A stretch of DNA of 61,992 nucleotides from a virus: positions 1 through 61,992 of IMG/VR virus record IMGVR_UViG_3300045988_165080. One strand, written 5' to 3'. Made by a program: the position numbers and the translations under genes. Shown one piece after another: positions 14,234 through 61,992 of the stretch; within the stretch, counting starts at the first letter, position 1, and every line of letters starts with the position of its first letter. A model generated the notes under the pieces. The model saw nothing but the letters and a program-made list of their open reading frames with translations. It did not search any database and was not told the origin of the DNA.

Positions 14234-14712
14234 GTGGGGTGAAAGCAATATTGAATAAAGAAGTTTTCAAAGAAGTTGATGAAATATTAAAAAATCTAAA
14301 ATATATTGATATTTACATAAAAGAAAAAGAATATCAAATAGAAAAAATAAAAAATGGAGATAGAGGAGCGATACAAGCAGTCTGTAATGATCTATTTAAA
14401 TCTTCTCCAACTAATTCAATTTCTAGCCGAGTTGAAAACGAAGTAATAAGTAGAGATAGATTAATTGCACAGCTAGAAGGGGAAATCTATGAACAAGGTA
14501 AAAACAGAAGACTTGTAATAAATGCTTTGAGTGAAATGGGAGAGAGTGAAAGATTTATTTATCAAGAGGTTTATCAAGAAGAAAAATTACTTTCACAAAT
14601 AGCTCAAGAAAATAATTGTTCTGTAGCAAAAATTTCATATATGAGAAAAGATTTTATAAACAAAATGGCCATAGTTCTATTAGGGCCAAAAGTATTGGAG
14701 GGGGAAAGATGA
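14209..14712 (+). CDS. Possible ArpU/RinA-type or sigma-region-4-like late transcription regulator
   Basis: C-terminal HTH-like segment LLSQIAQENNCSVAKISYMRKDFINKMA. Position is upstream of the sigma factor. Confidence 0.35.
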   Translation: MEIQSDVISGVKAILNKEVFKEVDEILKNLKYIDIYIKEKEYQIEKIKNGDRGAIQAVCNDLFKSSPTNSISSRVENEVISRDRLIAQLEGEIYEQGKNRRLVINALSEMGESERFIYQEVYQEEKLLSQIAQENNCSVAKISYMRKDFINKMAIVLLGPKVLEGER

Positions 14713-15713
14713 TTATACATAAATCAATAATACATGTACTAGATAAAAATAGTGATAGTCCAATATTAAATGACTATGAATGTAAAAATAGCTTAGAAGT
14801 AGATAAGTTTTTCCAAAAAATAATAAATAGAGTATCAAAAGATGATGATCTAAGAAAAGCAATATTTAATGATTACAGCAACAATATAGTTAAAAATTGT
14901 TGTGAACAAATTATATATGACGAAAACACATTTTTAAAAAATTCAAAAGAAATAGCAGCATATTTATTTGATATTATGCAACAAAGTGAAGGAATAGATT
15001 CTTGCGATTTAGCAATCTGTTTATATAGTGTAAAAAACGAAAAAAATGTAGCAATAATAAAACTTGATTATAGAAAAAATTATACACATTCAATTGATTT
15101 TATAGAAAATAAATTCAATATACAAATAATATCAAATGAAATTGGAATACCTGAAACTAGCAAACCAAAACAGTGTGCATTAGTTGGAGTTAGTGGGATA
15201 AATGATTATTATCATTTTAGATTGTTAGACAAAGATGCTGAAAAAGACCAACTTGAAACTAAATTTTTAACAGATTTTCTAAATGCTAAGAAAATAGAAG
15301 ATTCTAAATATAAAACAAAAGTATTTAAGAAAACTACAGATAGTTGGATAACAAATGCAATAACAGAAGATATGAAAATGGCCGAAGATATAAGGAGTAT
15401 GCTTAATTATACTTTGAAAGAAAAAGAAACTGTAGATGTTAAAGAATTTGCTAAAAGTAGTATACAAGATGAAGTGTTACAAGAAAGCTTTAATGAACGA
15501 ATGGAAGATAGAAACTTAACTGAAAGCTTTGAAATAGACAAAAAATGGGTTGAAAAGAAACTTAAAAACAGAAGTATAAAAACTGATACTGGATTTAGTA
15601 TAAAAGGAAATTTAACAAATTTTGAAGATCCAATGAAATATAGTTTTAGAAAAAATGAAAATGGAACATACGACATAGTATTAAAAAATATATCTTTTTA
15701 TGAGGAGAAATAA
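14709..15713 (+). CDS. Nucleoid-associated protein (NdpA/YejK-like family)
   Basis: N-terminus MIIHKSIIHVLDKNSDSPILNDYE and a size of about 334 aa fit the family. RBS ggaggggg. Confidence 0.5.
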   Translation: MIIHKSIIHVLDKNSDSPILNDYECKNSLEVDKFFQKIINRVSKDDDLRKAIFNDYSNNIVKNCCEQIIYDENTFLKNSKEIAAYLFDIMQQSEGIDSCDLAICLYSVKNEKNVAIIKLDYRKNYTHSIDFIENKFNIQIISNEIGIPETSKPKQCALVGVSGINDYYHFRLLDKDAEKDQLETKFLTDFLNAKKIEDSKYKTKVFKKTTDSWITNAITEDMKMAEDIRSMLNYTLKEKETVDVKEFAKSSIQDEVLQESFNERMEDRNLTESFEIDKKWVEKKLKNRSIKTDTGFSIKGNLTNFEDPMKYSFRKNENGTYDIVLKNISFYEEK

Positions 15714-15716
15714 AAA

Positions 15717-16271
15717 ATGACGAAGGAAGAAAAAAATCAATTAGCAGAAGAAAATTTGGGTTTAATTTATGCAGTTATAAATAAAAAATTTAATTTTGAA
15801 AATGTTACAGAAGAAGATAAAAAAAATTATTTTGAGGAAGGAATGATAGGTTTAGCAATAGCAATAAATAATTATGATACATCAGTAGATTCAAAGTTTT
15901 CCTCTTATGCTTTCACATGTATCAAAAATGAAATATGTAAATATATAGACAAACAAAAATGTTATAAAAGGAAAACAGATTCTGAATATAAAAAATCAAT
16001 CGATGAATATATAGATGGAGATAAAAAACTAACATATAAAGATATTTTAGTAAATGAAAAGGAAGATTATATTTCTTTAATCAACAAAGAATACATTTTA
16101 AATACAATTGAACAAATAGATATAAAAGATATAAAATTTATAGTTTCAAAACGAATTGAAGGATATACCTACAAAGAAATAGGAATTGAACTTAAAATTA
16201 GTAAACAAGCAGTACATACAAGAATAAAAAATTTAAAAAAGAATTTGCTTGCATCAGGAGTAATAATATAA
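15717..16271 (+). CDS. Sigma-70 family (ECF-like) sigma factor
   Basis: Region 2-like FSSYAFTCIKNEICKYI and region 4 HTH EGYTYKEIGIELKISKQAVHTRIKNLKKNL. Confidence 0.75.
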   Translation: MTKEEKNQLAEENLGLIYAVINKKFNFENVTEEDKKNYFEEGMIGLAIAINNYDTSVDSKFSSYAFTCIKNEICKYIDKQKCYKRKTDSEYKKSIDEYIDGDKKLTYKDILVNEKEDYISLINKEYILNTIEQIDIKDIKFIVSKRIEGYTYKEIGIELKISKQAVHTRIKNLKKNLLASGVII

Positions 16272-17406: not shown

Positions 17407-17630
17407 AACAAGCACTAGAAATATTAAAAAGAGAATGTACTAAACAAGACGACTGTGAAGGTTGCCCAATATCTAAGGTATTAGGATATAGTTGCCAAGA
17501 GGTAGCTATTCCAGAAGAATGGGAAGTAAACCACTAGGAGGAGAAATGGATAGAGTAATAGGAGATATAATTATTCTAGTTGTAATAGGATTATGGATAG
17601 CTAGTAGATTATTTGTATAAGGGGGATAAT

Positions 17631-18407
17631 ATGTTTACAATAAATGATTTTAAAGTAGAGTTAAAAAATCCAGAAGAAGTAAAAAACTTTGTAAAAAGAC
17701 ATGGAGAATTTAGTAAAGTGTGTTATGATACTCCAAAAGAAAAAGCAGAAAAAGTAGGAGAACATTGCTTAGAAAGTGGACATCTAAGTGGAAGTAGACA
17801 CTTATATATGGTATTTGAATTAGAAAATGTACCTCGCAGCCTAATTGATCAGTTGGTTCGCCATGAACAAGGAGTAGTAAAAAACGTGCAATCTCTTAGA
17901 TATTGCAACAAAAAAGAAGATGTTAATGTATATGTGGCTCCTGAGGTAATGGAAGATGTATATTTAAGAGCAGAAATTATAGGAATAGAGCAAATTATTC
18001 GTAAATCTTACGAAAATATCCAAGCTACACTAAAAGATGCTGGACTAACAGGAGAAAAAAGTAATGAAATAGCCAGAACAATACTACCAATAGGAATAAG
18101 TACAAAATGTAGTTTTGCAGTAAATTTAGAAGGATTAATTCATCTTGCTAATGTTAGACTTTGCAATAGAGCAGAGCTTCCAATTAGAACAATAGTAAAA
18201 GAAATGGTCAAACAAGTAGTAGAAATAGAACCGAGATATAAACCATTCCTTGTGCCTAACTGTAAGAAATTAGGATATTGTCCAGAAGGTAATAAGCATA
18301 GTTGTGGTAGAAAACCTACAAAAGAAGAAATAGATAATAGGGAAGAAAAATATTTAGCTTTAAAAAAATGGTTTACTGAGTTTAAAAAAGAACATGGATA
18401 TGATTAG
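17631..18407 (+). CDS. thyX: ThyX-like flavin-dependent thymidylate synthase (divergent signature)
   Basis: [41 protein letters not shown]. This resembles the ThyX RHRxxSxxxxSxR motif but reads RHE with altered spacing. Confidence 0.75.
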
Positions 18408-24452: not shown

Positions 24453-25715
24453 ATGTATTTTGGAATTTACTCAATAACAAATGTAGTAACAGGTGATATG
24501 TATATAGGACAAACAATCCAAGATTTTGAAAAAAGATGGAAAAGCCATATAAGTGCTTTAAATAGAGGTAATCATGATAATGAATATCTTCAAAGAAGTT
24601 GGAATAAATATGGAGAAGATGCTTTTAAGTTTAAAGCTATACATTATTGTGATGAACTTGACATTTTAAATGATTTAGAAAAGTATTATATAAAAAAATA
24701 TGATACTTATAATAATGGATTTAATATGACAGAAGGTGGAGACTATTTTCTAAATGAAATTCCAGAAGAAATACGAAAGAAAAGATTAGAAAATTTAAAG
24801 AAAGTAAATAGAGAAAGAAGTGATTATACAGAGCATCAAATTGCTAAGGTTAAGGAAATGTTGTCAGTGCTAGAAAATAATCCAATCTCTATAAAGAAAA
24901 TATCTAAATTAACTGGAGTTAGAGAAAATATCATTTATAGCATTAAAAATCTTGACTCTTGGATAGATGTGAGATCCGATTTAAATGAAAAAATCAAACA
25001 ATTAAATTTTATAGAGTGTAGAAATAAAAAAATTATAGAGGATTTATATTCTTATAATTATTCTTTAGAAGAACTTTGTAATAAATATAATCTTGCAGAA
25101 AATAGCATTAGAACTATTTTTTACAAAGAAAAAATAAAAGATTATGGTAAAGTTTTTAAAGATGTGAAAAATACTCGAATGAAACAAAAATTTTTAAAAG
25201 GAATGGAAAAAGGTATCGAAACGTTTATAGATATGGAAAATTTTACCGGACATTCGAGATATACACTTGAAAAAATGTGTGAAAGAGAAGGATTACAAGA
25301 ACAATGTAAAAAGCTAAGAAAAATAAGAAATAAAAATATGTATAAGAGCAAAGAAAAAGGAGTTAATTATGATATTAAAAGGAAAAGTTGGTTTTTAAGA
25401 ATAAATTTTAATGGCAAACAGATACCAATAGGTCATTTTAAAACAGAAAAAGATGCTATAGATGCAAAACAACAGTTAATTCCACATATAAAAACTAATG
25501 ATTATACTTCTATATTAGCAATAAAAGCTAAATATAGTAAAAAAGTTACTCCTAAGAAAACTATTAAAGCAATAAACATAAAAGATAATTCAGAAGAAAT
25601 TATTGAAGGAATAGGAGTTTGTGCAAGAAAACTTGATATTCCAAGAAAAAGCATAGAAAAAGTGTTACAAGGAAAACAAAAAACAACTTATGGATATACA
25701 TTTGCATATGTTTAA
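24453..25715 (+). CDS. GIY-YIG homing endonuclease with a C-terminal AP2-like DNA-binding domain
   Basis: GIYSITNVVTGDMYIGQT...RWKSH and KGVNYDIKRKSWFLRINFNGKQIPIGHFKTEKDAIDAKQ. Confidence 0.85.
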   Translation: MYFGIYSITNVVTGDMYIGQTIQDFEKRWKSHISALNRGNHDNEYLQRSWNKYGEDAFKFKAIHYCDELDILNDLEKYYIKKYDTYNNGFNMTEGGDYFLNEIPEEIRKKRLENLKKVNRERSDYTEHQIAKVKEMLSVLENNPISIKKISKLTGVRENIIYSIKNLDSWIDVRSDLNEKIKQLNFIECRNKKIIEDLYSYNYSLEELCNKYNLAENSIRTIFYKEKIKDYGKVFKDVKNTRMKQKFLKGMEKGIETFIDMENFTGHSRYTLEKMCEREGLQEQCKKLRKIRNKNMYKSKEKGVNYDIKRKSWFLRINFNGKQIPIGHFKTEKDAIDAKQQLIPHIKTNDYTSILAIKAKYSKKVTPKKTIKAINIKDNSEEIIEGIGVCARKLDIPRKSIEKVLQGKQKTTYGYTFAYV

Positions 25716-26667: not shown

Positions 26668-26743
26668 TGGCCTATAGCTCAACAGGTAGAGCGCTCGGCT
26701 GTTAACCGATAGGTTGCGAGTTCAAATCTCACTAGGCCAGCCA
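26668..26743 (+). tRNA. tRNA-Asn (anticodon GTT), CCA encoded
   Basis: Acceptor stem TGGCCTA/TAGGCCA, D-arm GCTC..GAGC, anticodon loop CTGTTAA, T-loop TTCAAAT and 3' GCCA. Confidence 0.85.
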
Positions 26744-53568: not shown

Positions 53569-53602
53569 AAGAGTAGCTAAATCAATAGCTACTCTTTTTT
53601 AT
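53569..53602 (+). terminator. Intrinsic terminator closing the tail-fibre region
   Basis: Stem aagagtagct/agctactctt followed by a T-run. Confidence 0.75.
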
Positions 53603-53671
53603 TAAAAAATTATAAAAAGTGTAATCTTTTCCATACTTTTGCATAGAATTAAGTAAAAGGAGGTTTAGATT

Positions 53672-53851
53672 ATGAAAAATAATAAAACCGTAATCCAATT
53701 GAGTTTTAAAAATAACATGGATGATAAACTTTTATTATCGTGGCTAGAAGATAAATTTGCAGAATACGGTAATAAAAGTAATTATATAAAATACATTCTT
53801 AGAAAAGAAATGCTAAAAGAATCAAATGAGTTTGCTCAAAAAGTCAAATAG
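53672..53851 (+). CDS. Ribbon-helix-helix-like regulator heading the accessory cassette (not in the ORF track)
   Basis: RBS aaaggagg, then MKNNKTVIQLSFKNNMDDKLLLSWLEDKFAEYGNKSNYIKYILRKEM. Confidence 0.5.
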   Translation: MKNNKTVIQLSFKNNMDDKLLLSWLEDKFAEYGNKSNYIKYILRKEMLKESNEFAQKVK

Positions 53852-53887
53852 AAAAGCAAGTCCGAACCAAAATAATGCTTCACTCAT
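53822..53887 (-). CDS. Speculative 21-aa hydrophobic peptide antisense to the RHH 3' end
   Basis: RBS gaggtg 6 nt before ATG. Sequence MSEALFWFGLAFLFDFLSKLI. Confidence 0.2.
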   Translation of the reverse strand: MSEALFWFGLAFLFDFLSKLI

Positions 53888-53950
53888 TTTTATCACCTCG
53901 GTCAATTCATATTTTAATTATTATTTTAAACAGGAAGGAGATTTTTATAC

Positions 53951-54331
53951 ATGAAATCTTATAGTTTTAAGGAATATAAGTTAATATCAGAAAATGATTG
54001 CACTTTAATTGAAAAATTTCTTAATAACTTAAAGATGAATAAAAAAGAATACAAAAGAATTATTGTTTTAATAGCTATTTTTATGAATAAGAATTTAATT
54101 TCTTATTGTATAACTACAGAAACTGAAATATCAAACGTAGCTACTCAAATCCTTAGTTTATTAATGGTCTTTGCTAAATATGGTTGTATGTGTATGGGAA
54201 TAAAAAGCATTATAGAAAATGCTTTACAAGGGGCAGATTTTAAGCAAGCAACAACATCTGGAATACAATATTTCCTAATTTATATATTATTAAGTTTTTA
54301 TCCGAAACTTTTTTCAATGATTAGATTTTAG
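53951..54331 (+). CDS. Small membrane protein (two hydrophobic helices; VirB2/TcpD-like topology)
   Basis: VATQILSLLMVFAKYGCMCMGI and GIQYFLIYILLSFYPKLF. RBS aggaaggag. Confidence 0.5.
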   Translation: MKSYSFKEYKLISENDCTLIEKFLNNLKMNKKEYKRIIVLIAIFMNKNLISYCITTETEISNVATQILSLLMVFAKYGCMCMGIKSIIENALQGADFKQATTSGIQYFLIYILLSFYPKLFSMIRF

Positions 54332-54342
54332 GAGGTATTGAT

Positions 54343-54594
54343 ATGGAAGAAAAATTAAATCAAGTTATAAATATTTTAGATAATTTCTTACATCCGATAG
54401 AATTTATTAAAGAAACTGGATATGAGCTTTTAGTTGCTATACAAAATCTATCTTTTGATATATGCCTTATAGCAGGTTTTATAGCACTTTTATTATATGT
54501 ATTTGGGTATAAGAAAGGTAAGAGATGGGCATTTATGATACCTTGTATATATATTATCCTTAACATAGTTATAGGAGCAATTACTCATGCTTAA
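54343..54594 (+). CDS. Small membrane protein (two TM helices; VirB3/TcpE-like topology)
   Basis: FDICLIAGFIALLLYVFGY and WAFMIPCIYIILNIVIGAI. RBS taggagg. Confidence 0.5.
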   Translation: MEEKLNQVINILDNFLHPIEFIKETGYELLVAIQNLSFDICLIAGFIALLLYVFGYKKGKRWAFMIPCIYIILNIVIGAITHA

Positions 54595-56797
54595 AAGTAT
54601 TCCTATAGCAAAATATTTTGAGATACAAAATCAAGAATATGTATACCTAAAATTAGTTCCAAGCAAATCAATTAGAAATAATAGGACTTATTCTATGTTA
54701 GAACTTGTAAATAAAATGTATCTCAATCTTAATAAGCTCATAAAGATAGAAGATAAAAAATTAATTATAAAAACTCAATTTAAAGCAAGTTATTATATTT
54801 ACATTACAAAAGATAAAATTAATTTTTATTTTATAGTTCCTAAACTATTCTATACAAAATTTAAAGTTAAATTTAAAGAAATATGGAAATCTGTAGAAAT
54901 AAAAGAAGTTAATACAATTCCACTCCTAACTAGATCACAATATCAATTAATATATAAAAATAAGGATTATATGTCCATAAATACAGATTTAAGGTCTAAT
55001 GACTTGTTATCCGCCAATATGGCTACTGTAGGAGTATTACAAGATGGAGAAGAAGCAGGAATATTATATAATTTTCTACCTACATCAGAAAAACAATGTA
55101 ATTATTTTAAATCCACTTGTCAAAAGTTTATTAAAGAATATAAAAATACAAATGTAAAATATACATCTAATGTCGTAGCTAATATCGTTATTAAAATATT
55201 ATCTTATAGTATAGATTTTGTTAACTCAACTTTAAATTTTTTATTTGATGTAAAACAAGTAGATAAACAAGTTAATTTTAATAAATTGAGTAATAATACA
55301 ATCAAAAAAGCTACTACAGATATATGTAAAACACAGATTATATTATCTAGCAAAGCTAAAACAACTAATAGAGAAAAATCTATTATAGATACATTATTTA
55401 ATTCTTATTCGGCTATAGAAGATGACAATAAGTTTATATGTAAGAAAATTAAACACAATATAAGAACATTAAATACATCTGTATATGAATGTGGTAATTT
55501 TATAGCACTTCCTGGAGATGATATAATACAGCAATTTCCACAGATAAATCATAACAAAGTATATAATAAGAATTTCCCAAAATGTTTAGCTACTGGAAAT
55601 ATATTAATTGGTAATACTATAAAAAATACACCAGTATATTATTCTATGGATAAGGAAATTAGTAGACTTGGAAGGGTATTAATGGGAGGTATGGGATGTG
55701 GTAAAACTTATTATATGCAGAATCTAGCAAAATCTATAATAGCTAATGGAGATGGCCTTATAGTATTAGATATAATAAGGGACTGCAGTCTTGCAGAATC
55801 TATAAAGCAGGTTACACCAAAAGATAGATTAATAGAAATAGATTGTAGTAATCCTAAGCAACTACAAGGATTTTGTTATAATGAATTAGTATGTAAAAGT
55901 AATGATAATTATAGAAAATTAGCTAAATGTATGGAAAAAGGCACACAATTACACATATTACTTAATACTATTAATGCTGATACAAAATTAACTCCTAGAA
56001 TGTTACGTTACTTTTATGCAGCTTGTACCGTAGTATTTTATAAGAATTTTAACGCTAGTTTCAAAGAAATTATAGAGATACTTTTATATCCTGATGTGCG
56101 TAAAAATCTTTTAGAAAAACTTTCAGAAAATGAAAAATCTTTACTTGCAGATGAAATTAAAGATTTATACGATTTAGATAAAGTCAATAAAAATGGAAAT
56201 ATAGAGAACTATGATAGCAAGATAGACGGAATAATAGATAGAATAAGCGTATTAAAAACTAATTTATATACAAAACTAGCTTATAATACACCAGGAAATA
56301 ATAATATAGACTTTGTAAAAGCATTAGACCAAAATAAAGTTATAATTATAAAGGCTAAAGAAGAAGATTTCACAAATAGAAATATGAGAGATTTAATAGC
56401 AACATTTTATCTTTCTAAAGTATGGTTAGCAAAACAAATAAGATCTAATACACGCACAGAATTATTTATAGACGAAATTAATTTATTTCCTACAGCACAA
56501 ATTATCCTGCAAGATATTCTCACAGAATGTAGAAAATATTCTTTAATTCCTACTATAAGCTTACACTTTTTAGAACAATGTACAAAAAAGTGTAAAAATG
56601 CTATTCTAAGTAGTGGATGTAGTTTTTTATTACTTGCTGGAGCTGATGTAAAATGTTTTATTGAACTTAAGGAATTATTTAATAAGGAAGGATACACAGA
56701 AACGGATTTACTAGAACTAAAAAGATATCATGCTCTTTGCCTTATTAGAAATGAAGATAATGTATATTCTGCATTTGTGGTAAGATTACCAAAATAA
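54587..56797 (+). CDS. 736-aa P-loop NTPase (HerA/VirB4/FtsK-like motif order) with an N-terminal half I could not assign to a family
   Basis: Walker A LMGGMGCGKTYY near residue 365, then GLIVLDIIRD. Walker B TELFIDEINLF. 8-nt overlap with the upstream membrane-protein gene. Confidence 0.6.
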   Translation: MLKSIPIAKYFEIQNQEYVYLKLVPSKSIRNNRTYSMLELVNKMYLNLNKLIKIEDKKLIIKTQFKASYYIYITKDKINFYFIVPKLFYTKFKVKFKEIWKSVEIKEVNTIPLLTRSQYQLIYKNKDYMSINTDLRSNDLLSANMATVGVLQDGEEAGILYNFLPTSEKQCNYFKSTCQKFIKEYKNTNVKYTSNVVANIVIKILSYSIDFVNSTLNFLFDVKQVDKQVNFNKLSNNTIKKATTDICKTQIILSSKAKTTNREKSIIDTLFNSYSAIEDDNKFICKKIKHNIRTLNTSVYECGNFIALPGDDIIQQFPQINHNKVYNKNFPKCLATGNILIGNTIKNTPVYYSMDKEISRLGRVLMGGMGCGKTYYMQNLAKSIIANGDGLIVLDIIRDCSLAESIKQVTPKDRLIEIDCSNPKQLQGFCYNELVCKSNDNYRKLAKCMEKGTQLHILLNTINADTKLTPRMLRYFYAACTVVFYKNFNASFKEIIEILLYPDVRKNLLEKLSENEKSLLADEIKDLYDLDKVNKNGNIENYDSKIDGIIDRISVLKTNLYTKLAYNTPGNNNIDFVKALDQNKVIIIKAKEEDFTNRNMRDLIATFYLSKVWLAKQIRSNTRTELFIDEINLFPTAQIILQDILTECRKYSLIPTISLHFLEQCTKKCKNAILSSGCSFLLLAGADVKCFIELKELFNKEGYTETDLLELKRYHALCLIRNEDNVYSAFVVRLPK

Positions 56798-56824
56798 AAG
56801 GAGGTTATCCCTCCTTATTTTTAT
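56798..56824 (+). terminator. Intrinsic terminator closing the accessory cassette
   Basis: Stem aaggagg/cctcctt followed by ATTTTTAT. Confidence 0.7.
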
Positions 56825-57020
56825 GTAAATTTATATAAATTCCTGTGCTAGATAAAAATACACATAGTATACCTAAATTGCTATAAACTTGATATAACCG
56901 CTCTACGTTTATTACGGTCGCTGTCGCTACTTCATAAACGCTTCGCATATCATAGCATATGCAAAATATATATAAAAATATTACTAATTAACAAAGTTTT
57001 AACACTTAAATTATAAATAT

Positions 57021-57038
57021 TAGGAATATGTTCCGATT
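57021..57038 (+). promoter_or_regulatory. Copy 3 of 18-bp motif TAGGAATATGTTCCGATT
   Basis: Identical to 2054-2071 and 2204-2221. Followed by a hairpin-rich ORF-less leader. Confidence 0.5.
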
Positions 57039-57301
57039 GCAAATTTGTTATTGGGAATTTACACTATAATTGTAGATAAAATAATTTCTCATTTGAAACC
57101 CCAACGAGCAAAGGAATCGGTTTAATAACCTTTTCCGGAAAGGACTTACTTTTAGAGTGGGTCCTTCTTTTGCTTATTGGCTATGAAAGAGGGTGATTCC
57201 AATGTGGACTTAATAAAAAAACATTTATATTTTAATCGAATTTTAATTTTAAAAGTTATATGTGTATATAGTATTTAGAGGCACTTACCATTTTTTCTAA
57301 G

Positions 57302-57332
57302 GGGGTTACTAATTTGTAATCCCTTTTATTTT
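57302..57332 (+). terminator. Terminator-like hairpin directly upstream of the RBS of the 57353 gene (possible attenuator)
   Basis: Stem ggggttac/gtaatccc followed by TTTTATTTT. The RBS aaaggag starts about 8 nt later. Confidence 0.5.
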
Positions 57333-57352
57333 GTAAAAAGGAGTTTGAAAAG

Positions 57353-57622
57353 ATGAAAATAAATATAAAAACTCCAGAAGGAGTTCATGCTGAACAAAGA
57401 GAAATCGAAGCTTACATAAAACATATTCATAAAAAATATCCAAATCGAGAAATTGAATATCTAAATATAACAATAGACGATAAAGGGTATGTAGATTTAG
57501 AATATAAACTTGTTCCTGTTTCATTTGAAAGAATCAGAAGAATTACAGGTTATTTAAGTGAAGTTCGACAATTTAACGATGGTAAAAAAGGAGAACTTAG
57601 AGATAGAGTAAAACATACTTAA
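57353..57622 (+). CDS. Small protein with an NrdD-type glycyl-radical C-terminal motif
   Basis: FERIRRITGYLSEVRQFNDGKKGELRDRVKH resembles the class III ribonucleotide reductase C-terminus R-x-C-G-Y-L...N-x-G-K-x-x-E...R-x-x-H. Confidence 0.5.
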   Translation: MKINIKTPEGVHAEQREIEAYIKHIHKKYPNREIEYLNITIDDKGYVDLEYKLVPVSFERIRRITGYLSEVRQFNDGKKGELRDRVKHT

Positions 57623-60615: not shown

Positions 60616-61539
60616 TTAAAATTTTAATTTTGCAAATTTAAATAATCCAATAGCAGTAGCCATTTGCGAATTTTCAACTCTATCAAAATCATCTGATGGT
60701 TCAAGGTTTAAAGAAGTTCCTCCAGCTAAATATAATTTCATTTCGTCTTTGTTAATCCAATTTTCTTCTACTATTTGATTAACTTTTTCAGATCCTAATT
60801 TGTATGCTTTTTTCTTTAATGTGTCATAATCATTTGAACTATCTATTTCATTTACACTTTTAGATATTCCAGTTGCCATTAAATTATCTTGAATTATTTT
60901 TAGCATTGTACTATTTCCATATTCAACAGTATTAGATAATCTATCGTTAAATACAAAACCTTTATCAAAATATGATAATTCCATAGTTCTGAAACCAACA
61001 TTTACAAGCCCTACTGGTTTATCCTTGTTTACCTTTCCGTTGATAGCATAATATAATGCTGCATCTCCTTCTCTAGCTATTGAAACATCTTCTATGAACA
61101 CTTTTTTAGTAGCATTTGTAATATTATCTTTTATAACAATAGTTTCTCCTTTATAAGTTTCTACTATTTCAGCTAAAACTGATTTTTTATAGTTTTTATA
61201 TGGAACTCCAAACATAATTTTTACAGTATCTTTTACTGCAATATCATTTAAAGCAGCAGCTAATAAAATTTTCATAGTTTCACTTGTTTTACTATCTTGT
61301 GAATTTCTTATAGATGAATAAGATTCTTTTTCTGCTAGTAATCCAATAAAATAGTCCATTCCTTCTATGTTTAAATATTTAGGATCTTTGTAACTATCAA
61401 AATCAACTTTTCCTGAACGACCATCTCCATATACAGATTTAAATATTGTTTGTTTTTCTTCTCCATCTACTTCTGTATAAGCTTTTATATAGCCTCTTCC
61501 TCCATCAAATCCAATTAATTGGGTATCCTTTTTTGCCAT
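60616..61539 (-). CDS. parM: ParM/Alp-family actin-like segregation ATPase
   Basis: LIGFDGGRGYIKAY phosphate-1-like motif and LYLAGGTS adenosine/phosphate-2-like motif. 307 aa with a repeat array upstream. Confidence 0.75.
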   Translation of the reverse strand: MAKKDTQLIGFDGGRGYIKAYTEVDGEEKQTIFKSVYGDGRSGKVDFDSYKDPKYLNIEGMDYFIGLLAEKESYSSIRNSQDSKTSETMKILLAAALNDIAVKDTVKIMFGVPYKNYKKSVLAEIVETYKGETIVIKDNITNATKKVFIEDVSIAREGDAALYYAINGKVNKDKPVGLVNVGFRTMELSYFDKGFVFNDRLSNTVEYGNSTMLKIIQDNLMATGISKSVNEIDSSNDYDTLKKKAYKLGSEKVNQIVEENWINKDEMKLYLAGGTSLNLEPSDDFDRVENSQMATAIGLFKFAKLKF

Positions 61540-61823: not shown

Positions 61824-61988
61824 TTGGCAGTATCAGAAGAAAATTCAAGAATCAATGTTAAGTTTACTAAAAAAGAAAAAAATATCTTGCAAGAATTAGC
61901 TGAAAAAAAAGGTATTTCATTATCAAAACTTATTGCAAATATAGTAAAAAATTCAAATGATTTTAAAAATTTTTCTAATAAAAAATAG
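61824..61988 (+). CDS. CopG-like ribbon-helix-helix protein upstream of rep (runs into the closure overlap)
   Basis: TTG start after RBS aaggtggtg. Sequence SRINVKFTKKEKNILQELAEKKGISLSKLIANIVKN. Confidence 0.55.
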   Translation: MAVSEENSRINVKFTKKEKNILQELAEKKGISLSKLIANIVKNSNDFKNFSNKK

Positions 61989-61992
61989 CAAA

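Follow-up and report, generated by a model that had tools for sequence, protein, structure and literature searches.

A four-gene cassette of a clostridial phage-plasmid related to genes 31 to 32 of phage SPP1, and its possible role as a minimal membrane translocon

What does a compact unit of four genes, built around an ATPase that resembles the motors of type IV secretion, do between the tail-fibre and lysis genes of a phage? The question is raised by positions 53,672 to 56,824 of the IMG/VR virus record IMGVR_UViG_3300045988_165080, which we analysed over its whole length of 61,992 nucleotides (positions 1 to 61,992; the window from here on). A preliminary description of this DNA, made from the letters alone, compared the unit with VirB2/VirB3/VirB4 and TcpD/TcpE/TcpF and suggested that it might be a new membrane-anchored NTPase system. 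Judged by sequence comparison, the cassette is not a new kind of system, being a homologue of genes 31-31.1-31.2-32 of the Bacillus phage SPP1 and of what has been called the ‘DNA translocation operon’ in phages 0305phi8-36 and SPO1. We consider it probable that it is the clostridial phage-plasmid version of the SPP1 module and forms a minimal, type-IV-secretion-like membrane translocon. New here are the association of the module with the filament-forming proteins ParM/Alp or TubZ, its range of endospore-forming hosts, and a promoter motif resembling those used in the mother cell during sporulation.

The cassette consists of four open reading frames (ORFs) on the plus strand, each with a GGAG-type ribosome-binding site. 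The first encodes a 59-residue protein resembling ribbon-helix-helix (RHH) proteins (53672..53851; cluster c4), the counterpart of SPP1 gp31 and presumably a regulator or DNA adaptor. It is followed by a 126-residue membrane protein (53951..54331; cluster c1), the counterpart of gp31.1, by an 83-residue two-helix membrane hairpin (54343..54594; cluster c2), the positional counterpart of gp31.2 and presumed membrane anchor of the ATPase, and by the 736-residue soluble ATPase itself (54587..56797; cluster c0), homologous to SPP1 gp32 and SPO1 gp27.4. The ATPase ORF begins inside the hairpin ORF and shares 8 nt with it (54587-54594). Hairpins with T-runs, terminator-like on both strands, lie on either side: one at 53569..53602 (hairpin at 53569-53596, 11-bp stem with 4 GC pairs, 6-nt loop), which reads as the close of the preceding tail-fibre and small-ORF unit, and one at 56798..56824 (hairpin at 56798-56816, 7-bp stem), 1 nt past the ATPase stop. 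Such sites are frequent in the 6.5-kb region, with 8 observed against 0.9 expected from shuffles. Tail and tail-fibre genes stand on the 5′ side, and a holin (Phage_holin_5_2) and an Amidase_2 endolysin on the 3′ side. The four-gene layout, the flanking terminators, the 8-nt overlap and the setting between tail-fibre and lysis genes had all been read from the letters, and the ORF, hairpin and flank checks agree with them. Rfam and tRNA scans gave nothing inside or adjoining the cassette, and no repeat array suggestive of a centromere or oriT surrounds the RHH gene.

The ATPase carries a Walker A motif, GGMGCGKT (55685..55708, plus strand, residues 367-374), and a Walker B motif, ELFIDE (56459..56476, plus strand, residues 625-630), both as first described. 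Residues G372 and K373 of the former and D629 and E630 of the latter are invariant across 75 homologues, together with K241, E301, R505 and R552. K241 and E301 fall in the N-terminal domain of about 350 residues, which had been said to match nothing recognisable and for which Pfam and profile searches indeed gave no sequence relative. By hydropathy the protein has no hydrophobic or membrane segment and is soluble. Over its full length (residues 8-734) it matches PHROG 5156 with an E-value of 2.5e-77. The only Pfam match of the window protein is TrwB_AAD_bind, at 17.0 bits against a cut-off of 20.5 bits and limited to residues 356-396; among 57 relatives the same family is found in 18 (best E 6.6e-8), the generic AAA_14 also in 18, and other families in at most 8. 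NCBIfam gave no match. When the Protein Data Bank (PDB) was searched with the single sequence by phmmer, only noise was returned, and the family profile found matches at the level of the P-loop (RecA, DptH, B204, TrwB and HerA). PADLOC matched the ATPase to mad8 only (E 1.2e-7), within the P-loop domain; we rejected an assignment to the MADS system, as the similarity is of the generic P-loop kind and the other MADS genes are not present.

For structural comparison we used an AlphaFold2 model made from the 75-sequence alignment (predicted local distance difference test, pLDDT, 92) and discarded a single-sequence model (pLDDT 34). In the PDB, Foldseek ranks TrwK, the VirB4 protein of plasmid R388, first; it aligns over the full length (E 5e-13; TM-score 0.38 for about 870 aligned columns). 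Second is the coupling protein TrwB/VirD4, matched in the C-terminal half alone (target TM-score 0.57), and after it come HerA and 4ag6, the C-terminal domain of a Thermoanaerobacter VirB4 (target TM-score 0.64). In the model a helical insertion resembling the all-alpha domain lies between the two Walker motifs. Because of the Foldseek ranking and the TrwB_AAD_bind matches of the relatives, we place the modelled C-terminal motor in the VirB4/VirD4 branch of the FtsK-HerA superfamily, and the architecture of the model as a whole, a soluble N-terminal domain followed by the motor, is VirB4-like. The earlier idea of a VirB4-like orphan NTPase holds at the level of fold and layout, where full-length VirB4 is the best match, and fails at the level of sequence profiles: neither the VirB4 N-terminal family CagE_TrbE_VirB nor AAA_10 is matched by the window protein or by any of the 57 relatives.

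The relationship to SPP1 is much more direct. When the ATPase family is aligned to gp32 by hhalign, the probability is 100% (E 7.9e-54) over 736 columns, which, together with the published SPP1 and 0305phi8-36/SPO1 counterparts, speaks against the suggestion that the cassette is a new membrane-anchored NTPase system. The smaller genes give weaker signals, with a probability of 42% (E 2.7e-4) for the 59-residue family against gp31, with which it shares an RHH-like motif, and of 54% (E 1.3e-4, 102 columns in register) for the 126-residue family against a set of gp31.1-type proteins; between the 83-residue protein and gp31.2 no homology was detected. The arrangement is the same in both phages: the order of the four genes is identical, the hairpin gene overlaps the start of the ATPase gene, gp31.1 has a leader and two helices, gp31.2 is a two-helix hairpin, the unit lies near the lysis genes, and a terminator followed by a sigma-E-like motif precedes gene 31. 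The differences are that sequence identity is only about 18%, that SPP1 is a virulent Bacillus siphophage and the window a clostridial phage-plasmid, and that gp32 is 100 residues longer. In the re-annotation of SPP1 (Godinho et al. 2018; PMC6316719), gp32 is an 836-residue, non-essential protein whose C-terminus matches TrwB, VirB4 and FtsK by HHpred, and it was suggested that it may form a membrane-spanning translocon with gp31.1 and gp31.2, both of them membrane proteins.

A similar picture emerges for the larger Bacillus phages. Pathria et al. (2012; PMC3357382) described in 0305phi8-36 and SPO1 a ‘DNA translocation operon’ in which SPO1 gp27.3 is a putative relaxase and gp27.4 a coupling ATPase, accompanied by a VirB6-like protein and the actin-like gp27.9, and reported that its deletion from 0305phi8-36 leaves growth unimpaired. 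In our comparison gp27.4 is homologous to the window ATPase, gp27.9 is an Alp actin and gp27.3 is a Replic_Relax protein. The operon, which in SPO1 runs from gp27.9 to gp27.3, resembles the cassette in its ATPase, in the small membrane proteins 5′ of it and in the linked Alp/ParM gene found at many of the related loci. It differs by the additional Replic_Relax/MobC-like putative relaxase and the reported VirB6-like protein, counterparts of which were not found in the window; moreover, 0305phi8-36 and SPO1 are lytic phages with large genomes, unlike the phage-plasmid of the window.

Both small proteins upstream of the ATPase were originally thought to be membrane proteins with two hydrophobic helices each. 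Hydropathy and alignment support both as membrane proteins, and the 83-residue protein has two strong hydrophobic helices; the 126-residue protein, however, has three segments, a leader or first transmembrane segment and two further hydrophobic helices. Across 40 homologues of the latter, the N-terminus is cytoplasmic, the two helices are separated by a short polar loop and P118 is invariant. The leader usually ends in an Ala-x-Ala-like site, and that of the window protein in a degenerate ‘SYCI’. The commonest Pfam match of this family is TrbC, which is below threshold and found in 5 of the 40 members (best E 2.9e-4), with T4SS_pilin in one; a profile search returned only unnamed proteins with no Pfam domain, and all homologues are labelled ‘hypothetical’. 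The proposed link to VirB2 consists of the common layout and these sub-threshold TrbC matches. In the 83-residue family the helices are joined by a basic loop, GYKKGKR, with G55 and K58 invariant, and the positive-inside rule predicts a cytoplasmic loop and an N-terminus outside. At the same position, relatives in Bacillus, Paenibacillus and Alicyclobacillus have a fusion protein in which an M23 peptidoglycan peptidase is followed, at the C-terminus, by a c2-like membrane segment of two helices; the M23 domain would sit outside the cell. The 59-residue protein is called RHH-like from a conserved pattern, not from a database match: 29 homologues share a predicted strand-helix-helix pattern with S11 and K13 invariant, and the one match found is a weak one to phrog_4223. 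PDB profile searches with the three small-protein families gave no useful match (none at all for the 126-residue family), and PADLOC matched none of the three.

The element that carries the cassette fits a phage-plasmid. The window ends overlap exactly over 119 nt (1-119 equals 61874-61992), so that it closes to a circle of 61,873 bp. We scanned the ten largest ORFs of the early region, the cassette, the genes flanking it, and an Alp/ParM actin-like segregation gene (60616..61539, minus strand; Pfam ALP_N, E 5e-17; unlinked to the cassette in the window) with its 99-residue neighbour. Among these are a replication initiator, a DnaC-like loader, RecT and the Alp/ParM actin. No integrase, relaxase or other transfer gene was found by Pfam among the ten largest early-region ORFs, the remaining window ORFs being unscanned, nor among the precomputed Pfam matches of the genes flanking the cassette in related contigs. 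Circularity, the Alp/ParM gene and the lack of integrase and relaxase in the scanned ORFs are together consistent with a phage-plasmid. The preliminary statement that relaxase, coupling protein and VirB6/VirB8 genes are lacking likewise stands for the ORFs scanned, the others being unscanned, and no mating-pair-formation gene (VirB6, VirB8 and others) was seen in them or in the 8-kb flanks on either side of related loci.

How close is the cassette to known transfer machines? With the VirB4-VirB3-VirB2 set of R388 (TrwK/TrwM/TrwL) it shares the best full-length structural match, a soluble ATPase with N-terminal domain and C-terminal motor, and the order in which a small hairpin membrane protein and a leader-bearing two-helix protein precede the ATPase; translational coupling or fusion of VirB3 and VirB4 is common. 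Apart from the unmatched VirB4 families and the low TM-score, the differences are that VirB6, B8, B9, B10, B11 and D4 are lacking beside the cassette ATPase and that the basic loop of the hairpin is predicted to be cytoplasmic, a topology opposite to that of VirB3 in the R388 structure. TcpD-TcpE-TcpF of the Clostridium perfringens plasmid pCW3 and ConC/ConD/ConE of ICEBs1 also consist of two small membrane proteins followed by an ATPase of about 800 residues, TcpD has a leader ending in AYA and then two hydrophobic helices, and the hosts of pCW3 are clostridial. These loci, however, also encode a coupling protein and a relaxase, proteins resembling VirB6 and VirB8, and a hydrolase, and specific homology to the Tcp proteins, which had been one of the initial suggestions, is not borne out by hhalign (probability 16.7% for TcpD, 0.07% for TcpE and 6.8%, P-loop only, for TcpF).

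The coupling proteins TrwB/VirD4 share with the ATPase the TrwB_AAD_bind family seen in the relatives, the second-best fold match and the insertion resembling the all-alpha domain. The ATPase differs from them in having no N-terminal transmembrane anchor, in scoring below the Pfam cut-off and in its extra 350-residue N-terminal domain, for which they have no counterpart; nor was a partner Replic_Relax homologue found in the window. Small membrane proteins together with a VirB4/HerA-like ATPase and no relaxase are also known from the archaeal Ced system (CedA, CedA1, CedA2 and CedB), which differs from the cassette in its polytopic channel protein CedA, in being archaeal and in importing DNA.

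The family is large. In a large protein collection the ATPase has 963 relatives, of which the best 120 are 88-93% identical, all intact at 735-736 residues, and come from gut-metagenome contigs of 60-80 kb that bear the name Intestinibacter bartlettii or Romboutsia timonensis; a search made without a word index divides the family into 596 clusters at 50% identity. For the comparison of loci we fetched sequences from phages, from plasmids and from one genome per species, using a 15-sequence subset of the 75-sequence alignment for the genome search, and called and clustered the proteins anew. The order RHH-like protein, membrane protein of about 135 residues, hairpin of about 83 residues and ATPase of about 770 residues recurs at some 50 loci in phages, plasmids and prophages of clostridia and the Bacillus group. 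Among 59 ATPase loci, a homologue of the 126-residue protein is found in 44, one of the 83-residue protein directly upstream of the ATPase in 35, and one of the 59-residue protein in 27. Loci missed by the BLAST clustering usually have an ORF of equal size and hydrophobicity at the same position. That the cassette is self-contained, as proposed at the outset, and conserved as a unit is thus confirmed by the clustering.

In related gut contigs the upstream tail-fibre genes vary and the spacing within the cassette is identical. Between otherwise near-identical contigs the genes 5′ of the cassette differ (about 7360-8900 in L063-L066, 51063-53517 in the window) and include a pectate-lyase-like tail fibre, a CotH/Big_2 protein with an acyltransferase, and small ORFs; by its gene content, a variable receptor-binding region abuts the constant cassette. 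Megablast found no near relative of the window in the phage collection; in the plasmid collection its first 25 kb aligned with two C. perfringens plasmids alone, over about 200 bp at 77%.

At the related loci, genes for DNA segregation are frequent neighbours. An Alp/ParM homologue lies within 7 genes of the cassette at 27 loci besides the window, in most of them directly 5′ of the RHH gene. In two Paenibacillus loci this position is taken by a TubZ-type tubulin/FtsZ-like gene with a 58-residue ORF, directly 5′ of the membrane-protein and ATPase genes (L028, 5840-6919, and L030), and there is no ParM in the region shown. The presence of two unrelated filament systems at one position argues for a functional link to DNA positioning. 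A Replic_Relax (relaxase-like) gene adjoins the ATPase in SPO1 and pW2; a search for one gave nothing in either the window or the clostridial loci.

The hosts are almost exclusively endospore formers. Searching 50,697 phage records with tblastn, we matched 57 with the window ATPase and 107 with SPP1 gp32. The hosts are Bacillus, Geobacillus, Lysinibacillus, Brevibacillus, Alicyclobacillus, Clostridium and Terrisporobacter, plus one ‘Microcystis’ record that we suspect of being mislabelled, aligning as it does like the Bacillus phages of about 80 kb; in the 107 gp32-homologue records every other host forms endospores. The collection includes many phages of Staphylococcus, Streptococcus, Lactococcus, Listeria and Enterococcus, and tblastn matched none of them. 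Plasmid matches comprise 32 from Clostridium, 3 from Bacillus and 2 from the archaeon Haladaptatus, and MOB-suite typed 36 of the 37 carrier plasmids as non-mobilizable. The 54 genome loci belong to endospore-forming genera throughout, bar two contigs of one bin labelled ‘Candidatus Melainabacteria’. Carriers include the phages SPP1, SPO1 and SP-10 and plasmids of Clostridium tetani and C. botulinum. Two of the carrier phages have further genes beside the cassette: in SP-10 an adjoining sigma factor, considered as a sporulation sigma, was ruled out, since it is of the generic sigma-70/extracytoplasmic-function (ECF) type, and in the Alicyclobacillus phage MMB025 the gene directly 3′ of the ATPase (L069, 4961-6031), annotated ‘DefenseFinder protein’ and followed by an integrase, has no NCBIfam match.

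The promoter region suggests when the cassette may be used. Directly past the upstream terminator and 22 nt 5′ of the first ATG lies the promoter-like element GTAATCT-N14-CATAGAAT (53621..53649, plus strand), at the position of the conserved promoter of related cassettes. We aligned, on the -10 box, the 19 upstream regions of cassettes in which the RHH gene starts the unit and in which the upstream sequence begins directly after the terminator. They share the blocks aGGACAgGCAAgTT and CATAnAAT around a variable spacer, and another version is of the GGACAGGCAAG type. CATAT(T/A)AT is the canonical -10 box of the mother-cell sigma factors of C. difficile (PMC3789822). When scored with a position weight matrix (PWM) for sigma-K, the cassette promoters have a median of 7.1 compared to 3.5 for 166 other upstream regions of the same loci (p = 7e-5), and the window element scores 10.6, the 95th percentile of the controls being 9.0. 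High sigma-E scores are found for L007, L025 and SPP1. The two closest relatives of the window cassette have GTAATAT-N14-CATATAAT (sigma-E 14.2) and GGAATAT-N15-CATATAAT (14.4), and in the 62-kb window a sigma-E score of at least 13 is reached at only one site per strand. In SPP1 the element GGAATAA-N15-CATATCAT (sigma-E 14.2), directly past a terminator and 5′ of gene 31, stands alone, with no other site on either strand of 12 kb reaching 14; terminator and sigma-E-like element are arranged in the same way in GBK2 and LY5.

Several of these promoters also have a box resembling the site of the mother-cell regulator SpoIIID, whose consensus is TAGGACAAGC (PMC11180830). The sequence TAGGACAGGC agrees with it at 9 of 10 positions, and 10 cassette promoters agree at 8-9 of 10. 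A conserved block (T/A)AGGACAGGCAAGTT lies about 60-90 nt 5′ of the RHH gene, at a fixed 22 nt (from GGACA) to the CATAnAAT box, in twelve loci (L008, L011-L013, L015, L017-L019, L022, L024, L026 and L050); it matches the consensus at 7-9 of 10 positions, and at 8-9 in 9 of the 12. The window promoter has no SpoIIID-like box. We regard the mother-cell-type (sigma-E/K-like) motif that the promoter position appears to carry, and the link to sporulation with it, as a lead and not a result.

Other signals lie upstream of the cassette. In SPP1 (L061, 139-168) the -35-like and -10-like boxes 5′ of gene 31 enclose a palindrome, AGCGATATGATCGCT, which is a candidate operator for the RHH-like gp31. In Salirhabdus (L029) and Neobacillus (L040) the roughly 130 nt 5′ of the cassette carry repeats of GTATTAC and GTAATAC together with a shared GTAACACCA box, which have the appearance of operators or centromere-like sites in cassettes of the Bacillus type.

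If the cassette is the translocon that we propose, the ATPase ring would dock at the membrane via the 83-residue hairpin protein, and the leader-bearing 126-residue protein would form a channel or pilin-like part outside the cytoplasm. The RHH protein would autoregulate the unit or mark DNA as an adaptor, and ATP hydrolysis would drive a macromolecule through the cytoplasmic membrane, the DNA of the element itself being the most likely cargo. We favour DNA as the substrate because of the motor family, the linkage to ParM/TubZ and the relaxase-like neighbour in the lytic Bacillus phages. The function would be an accessory one, given that the literature finds the module dispensable for lytic growth in SPP1 and 0305phi8-36.

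Several points weigh against this account and its extension to sporulation. No experiment ties any member of the cassette family to transport, DNA or sporulation. A VirB6/VirB8-type channel protein, a relaxase and oriT were not found in the window ORFs scanned, which leaves DNA processing and the identity of the channel unexplained; the N-terminal domain of the ATPase is without sequence relative, and the full-length TM-score with VirB4 is just 0.38. The restriction to spore formers could reflect phylogenetic sampling rather than function, and it relies on setting aside the one ‘Microcystis’ record, the one ‘Melainabacteria’ bin and the two Haladaptatus plasmids. Integrated prophages carry the cassette too, though the chromosome takes them into the forespore anyway. 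The promoter elements are matches to a consensus within DNA rich in AT: as related promoters are of common descent, the rank test for sigma-K overstates significance; the sigma-K score of 10.6 is reached 22 times on the plus strand of the window, which makes the window element weak by itself (p ~0.035); the strict sigma-K pattern AC-N16/17-CATANNNTA is about as frequent as chance predicts; and, taken overall, the cassette promoters are not set apart from the 166 controls by the sigma-E PWM. Furthermore, SPP1 genes 31-32 have been assigned in the literature to an early sigma-A operon (PE5).

What, then, would such a translocon be used for? The restriction to spore formers, the frequent pairing with ParM/TubZ and the mother-cell-type promoter motif suggest an action during sporulation of the host, in which the cassette would help the phage or plasmid genome to reach the forespore or stay in it; we put this forward tentatively, as the most attractive of the possible uses. 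A more specific version, in which the translocon is expressed in the mother cell and, with the ParM/TubZ filament and the RHH protein as adaptor, moves a genome copy into the forespore, or keeps it there, after asymmetric septation, seems to us somewhat unlikely as it stands.

Alternatively, the cassette might export the phage or plasmid genome into neighbouring cells, in chains or biofilms, in a conjugation-like manner and without virions. The ATPase is VirB4/VirD4-like, Replic_Relax adjoins it in SPO1 and pW2, the Bacillus variants have M23 wall hydrolases, and ParM/ParR has been reported to stimulate R1 conjugation; virion-free spread has indeed been put forward for phage 0305phi8-36 (Pathria et al., PMC3357382). 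Against it, a relaxase, oriT and VirB6/VirB8 analogue were found neither in the scanned ORFs of the window nor in the clostridial loci, nearly all carrier plasmids are typed non-mobilizable, and the restriction to spore formers is left unexplained. We know of no report of transfer, and consider conjugation-like spread unlikely.

Superinfection exclusion or defence, in which a resident membrane-anchored ATPase complex would block or expel incoming phage or plasmid DNA, is in our view a distinctly doubtful explanation. It would suit the moron-like setting, with promoter and terminators of its own, between tail-fibre and lysis genes or between lysis and lysogeny modules, as well as the early expression in SPP1 (PMC6316719). 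FtsK/HerA-type ATPases do occur in defence systems, and there are the weak matches to DptH, HerA-Sir2 and mad8. The possibility of a defence system had also been raised from the letters, but no known defence family is matched apart from the generic P-loop alignment with mad8 shown by PADLOC, and no nuclease or other effector domain is present. The tight linkage to ParM/TubZ and RHH genes and the relaxase-like gene in lytic phages are atypical of defence islands, and the family is highly conserved and single-copy rather than patchy or variable.

Export of protein, whereby the ATPase would extract the pilin-like 126-residue protein to build a filament or secrete an effector with no DNA moved, accords with the VirB2-like layout and weak TrbC matches of that family and with the role of VirB4 in driving pilus assembly in type IV secretion, but is very improbable, as the unit has no adhesin or effector gene, a Gram-positive wall would require more machinery, homology to VirB2 is not established and the linkage to DNA-segregation genes points to DNA.

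Several other features of the replicon and its relatives are worth recording. Downstream of the cassette, about 530 non-coding nt (56825-57352) with terminator-like hairpins at 57140-57166 and 57299-57326 precede an 89-residue ORF (57353-57622, plus strand). The last 30 residues of its product match the glycyl-radical C-terminal region of the anaerobic ribonucleotide reductase NrdD (Pfam NRDD, E 4e-8; PHROG 487), so that the ORF is perhaps a separate ‘spare part’ for NrdD, standing alone. It occupies the same position in related contigs. At the window end, a 54-residue ORF (61824-61988) runs into the 119-nt terminal repeat; from a weak NikA-like Pfam match in related contigs, its product is likely an RHH protein. 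An ISL3-family transposase gene lies within the phage-plasmid at 22827-24140 (plus strand), and the same 437-residue transposase is encoded in L063-L066 at 14519-15832 (minus strand), just past the endolysin and on the opposite strand; given these differing sites, the insertion sequence appears to be mobile within the phage lineage. Just 5′ of the terminase region are a GIY-YIG/NUMOD homing-endonuclease-like gene (24453-25715, plus strand) and a tRNA-Asn (GTT) gene (26668-26743, plus strand). The window also encodes a 37-kDa nucleoid-associated protein (14616-15713; Pfam NA37, E 1.5e-57) and a ThyX thymidylate synthase (17613-18407).

The cassette family is large, widespread and present in model phages, and the window member itself occurs in many human-gut metagenome contigs assigned to Intestinibacter and Romboutsia. 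If it is true that the cassette moves DNA, it would be the smallest conjugation-type machine known in Gram-positive bacteria and would offer genes a path of spread, or phages a way to persist, that is missed when only virions are considered. If the forespore explanation were also true, the process would in effect be conjugation into the host's own spore, and the cassette a dedicated ‘virospore’ machine for lytic as well as temperate phages. The links to spore formers, to filaments and to the promoter motif make the old question of how phage and plasmid genomes enter spores experimentally testable in SPP1 and Bacillus subtilis.

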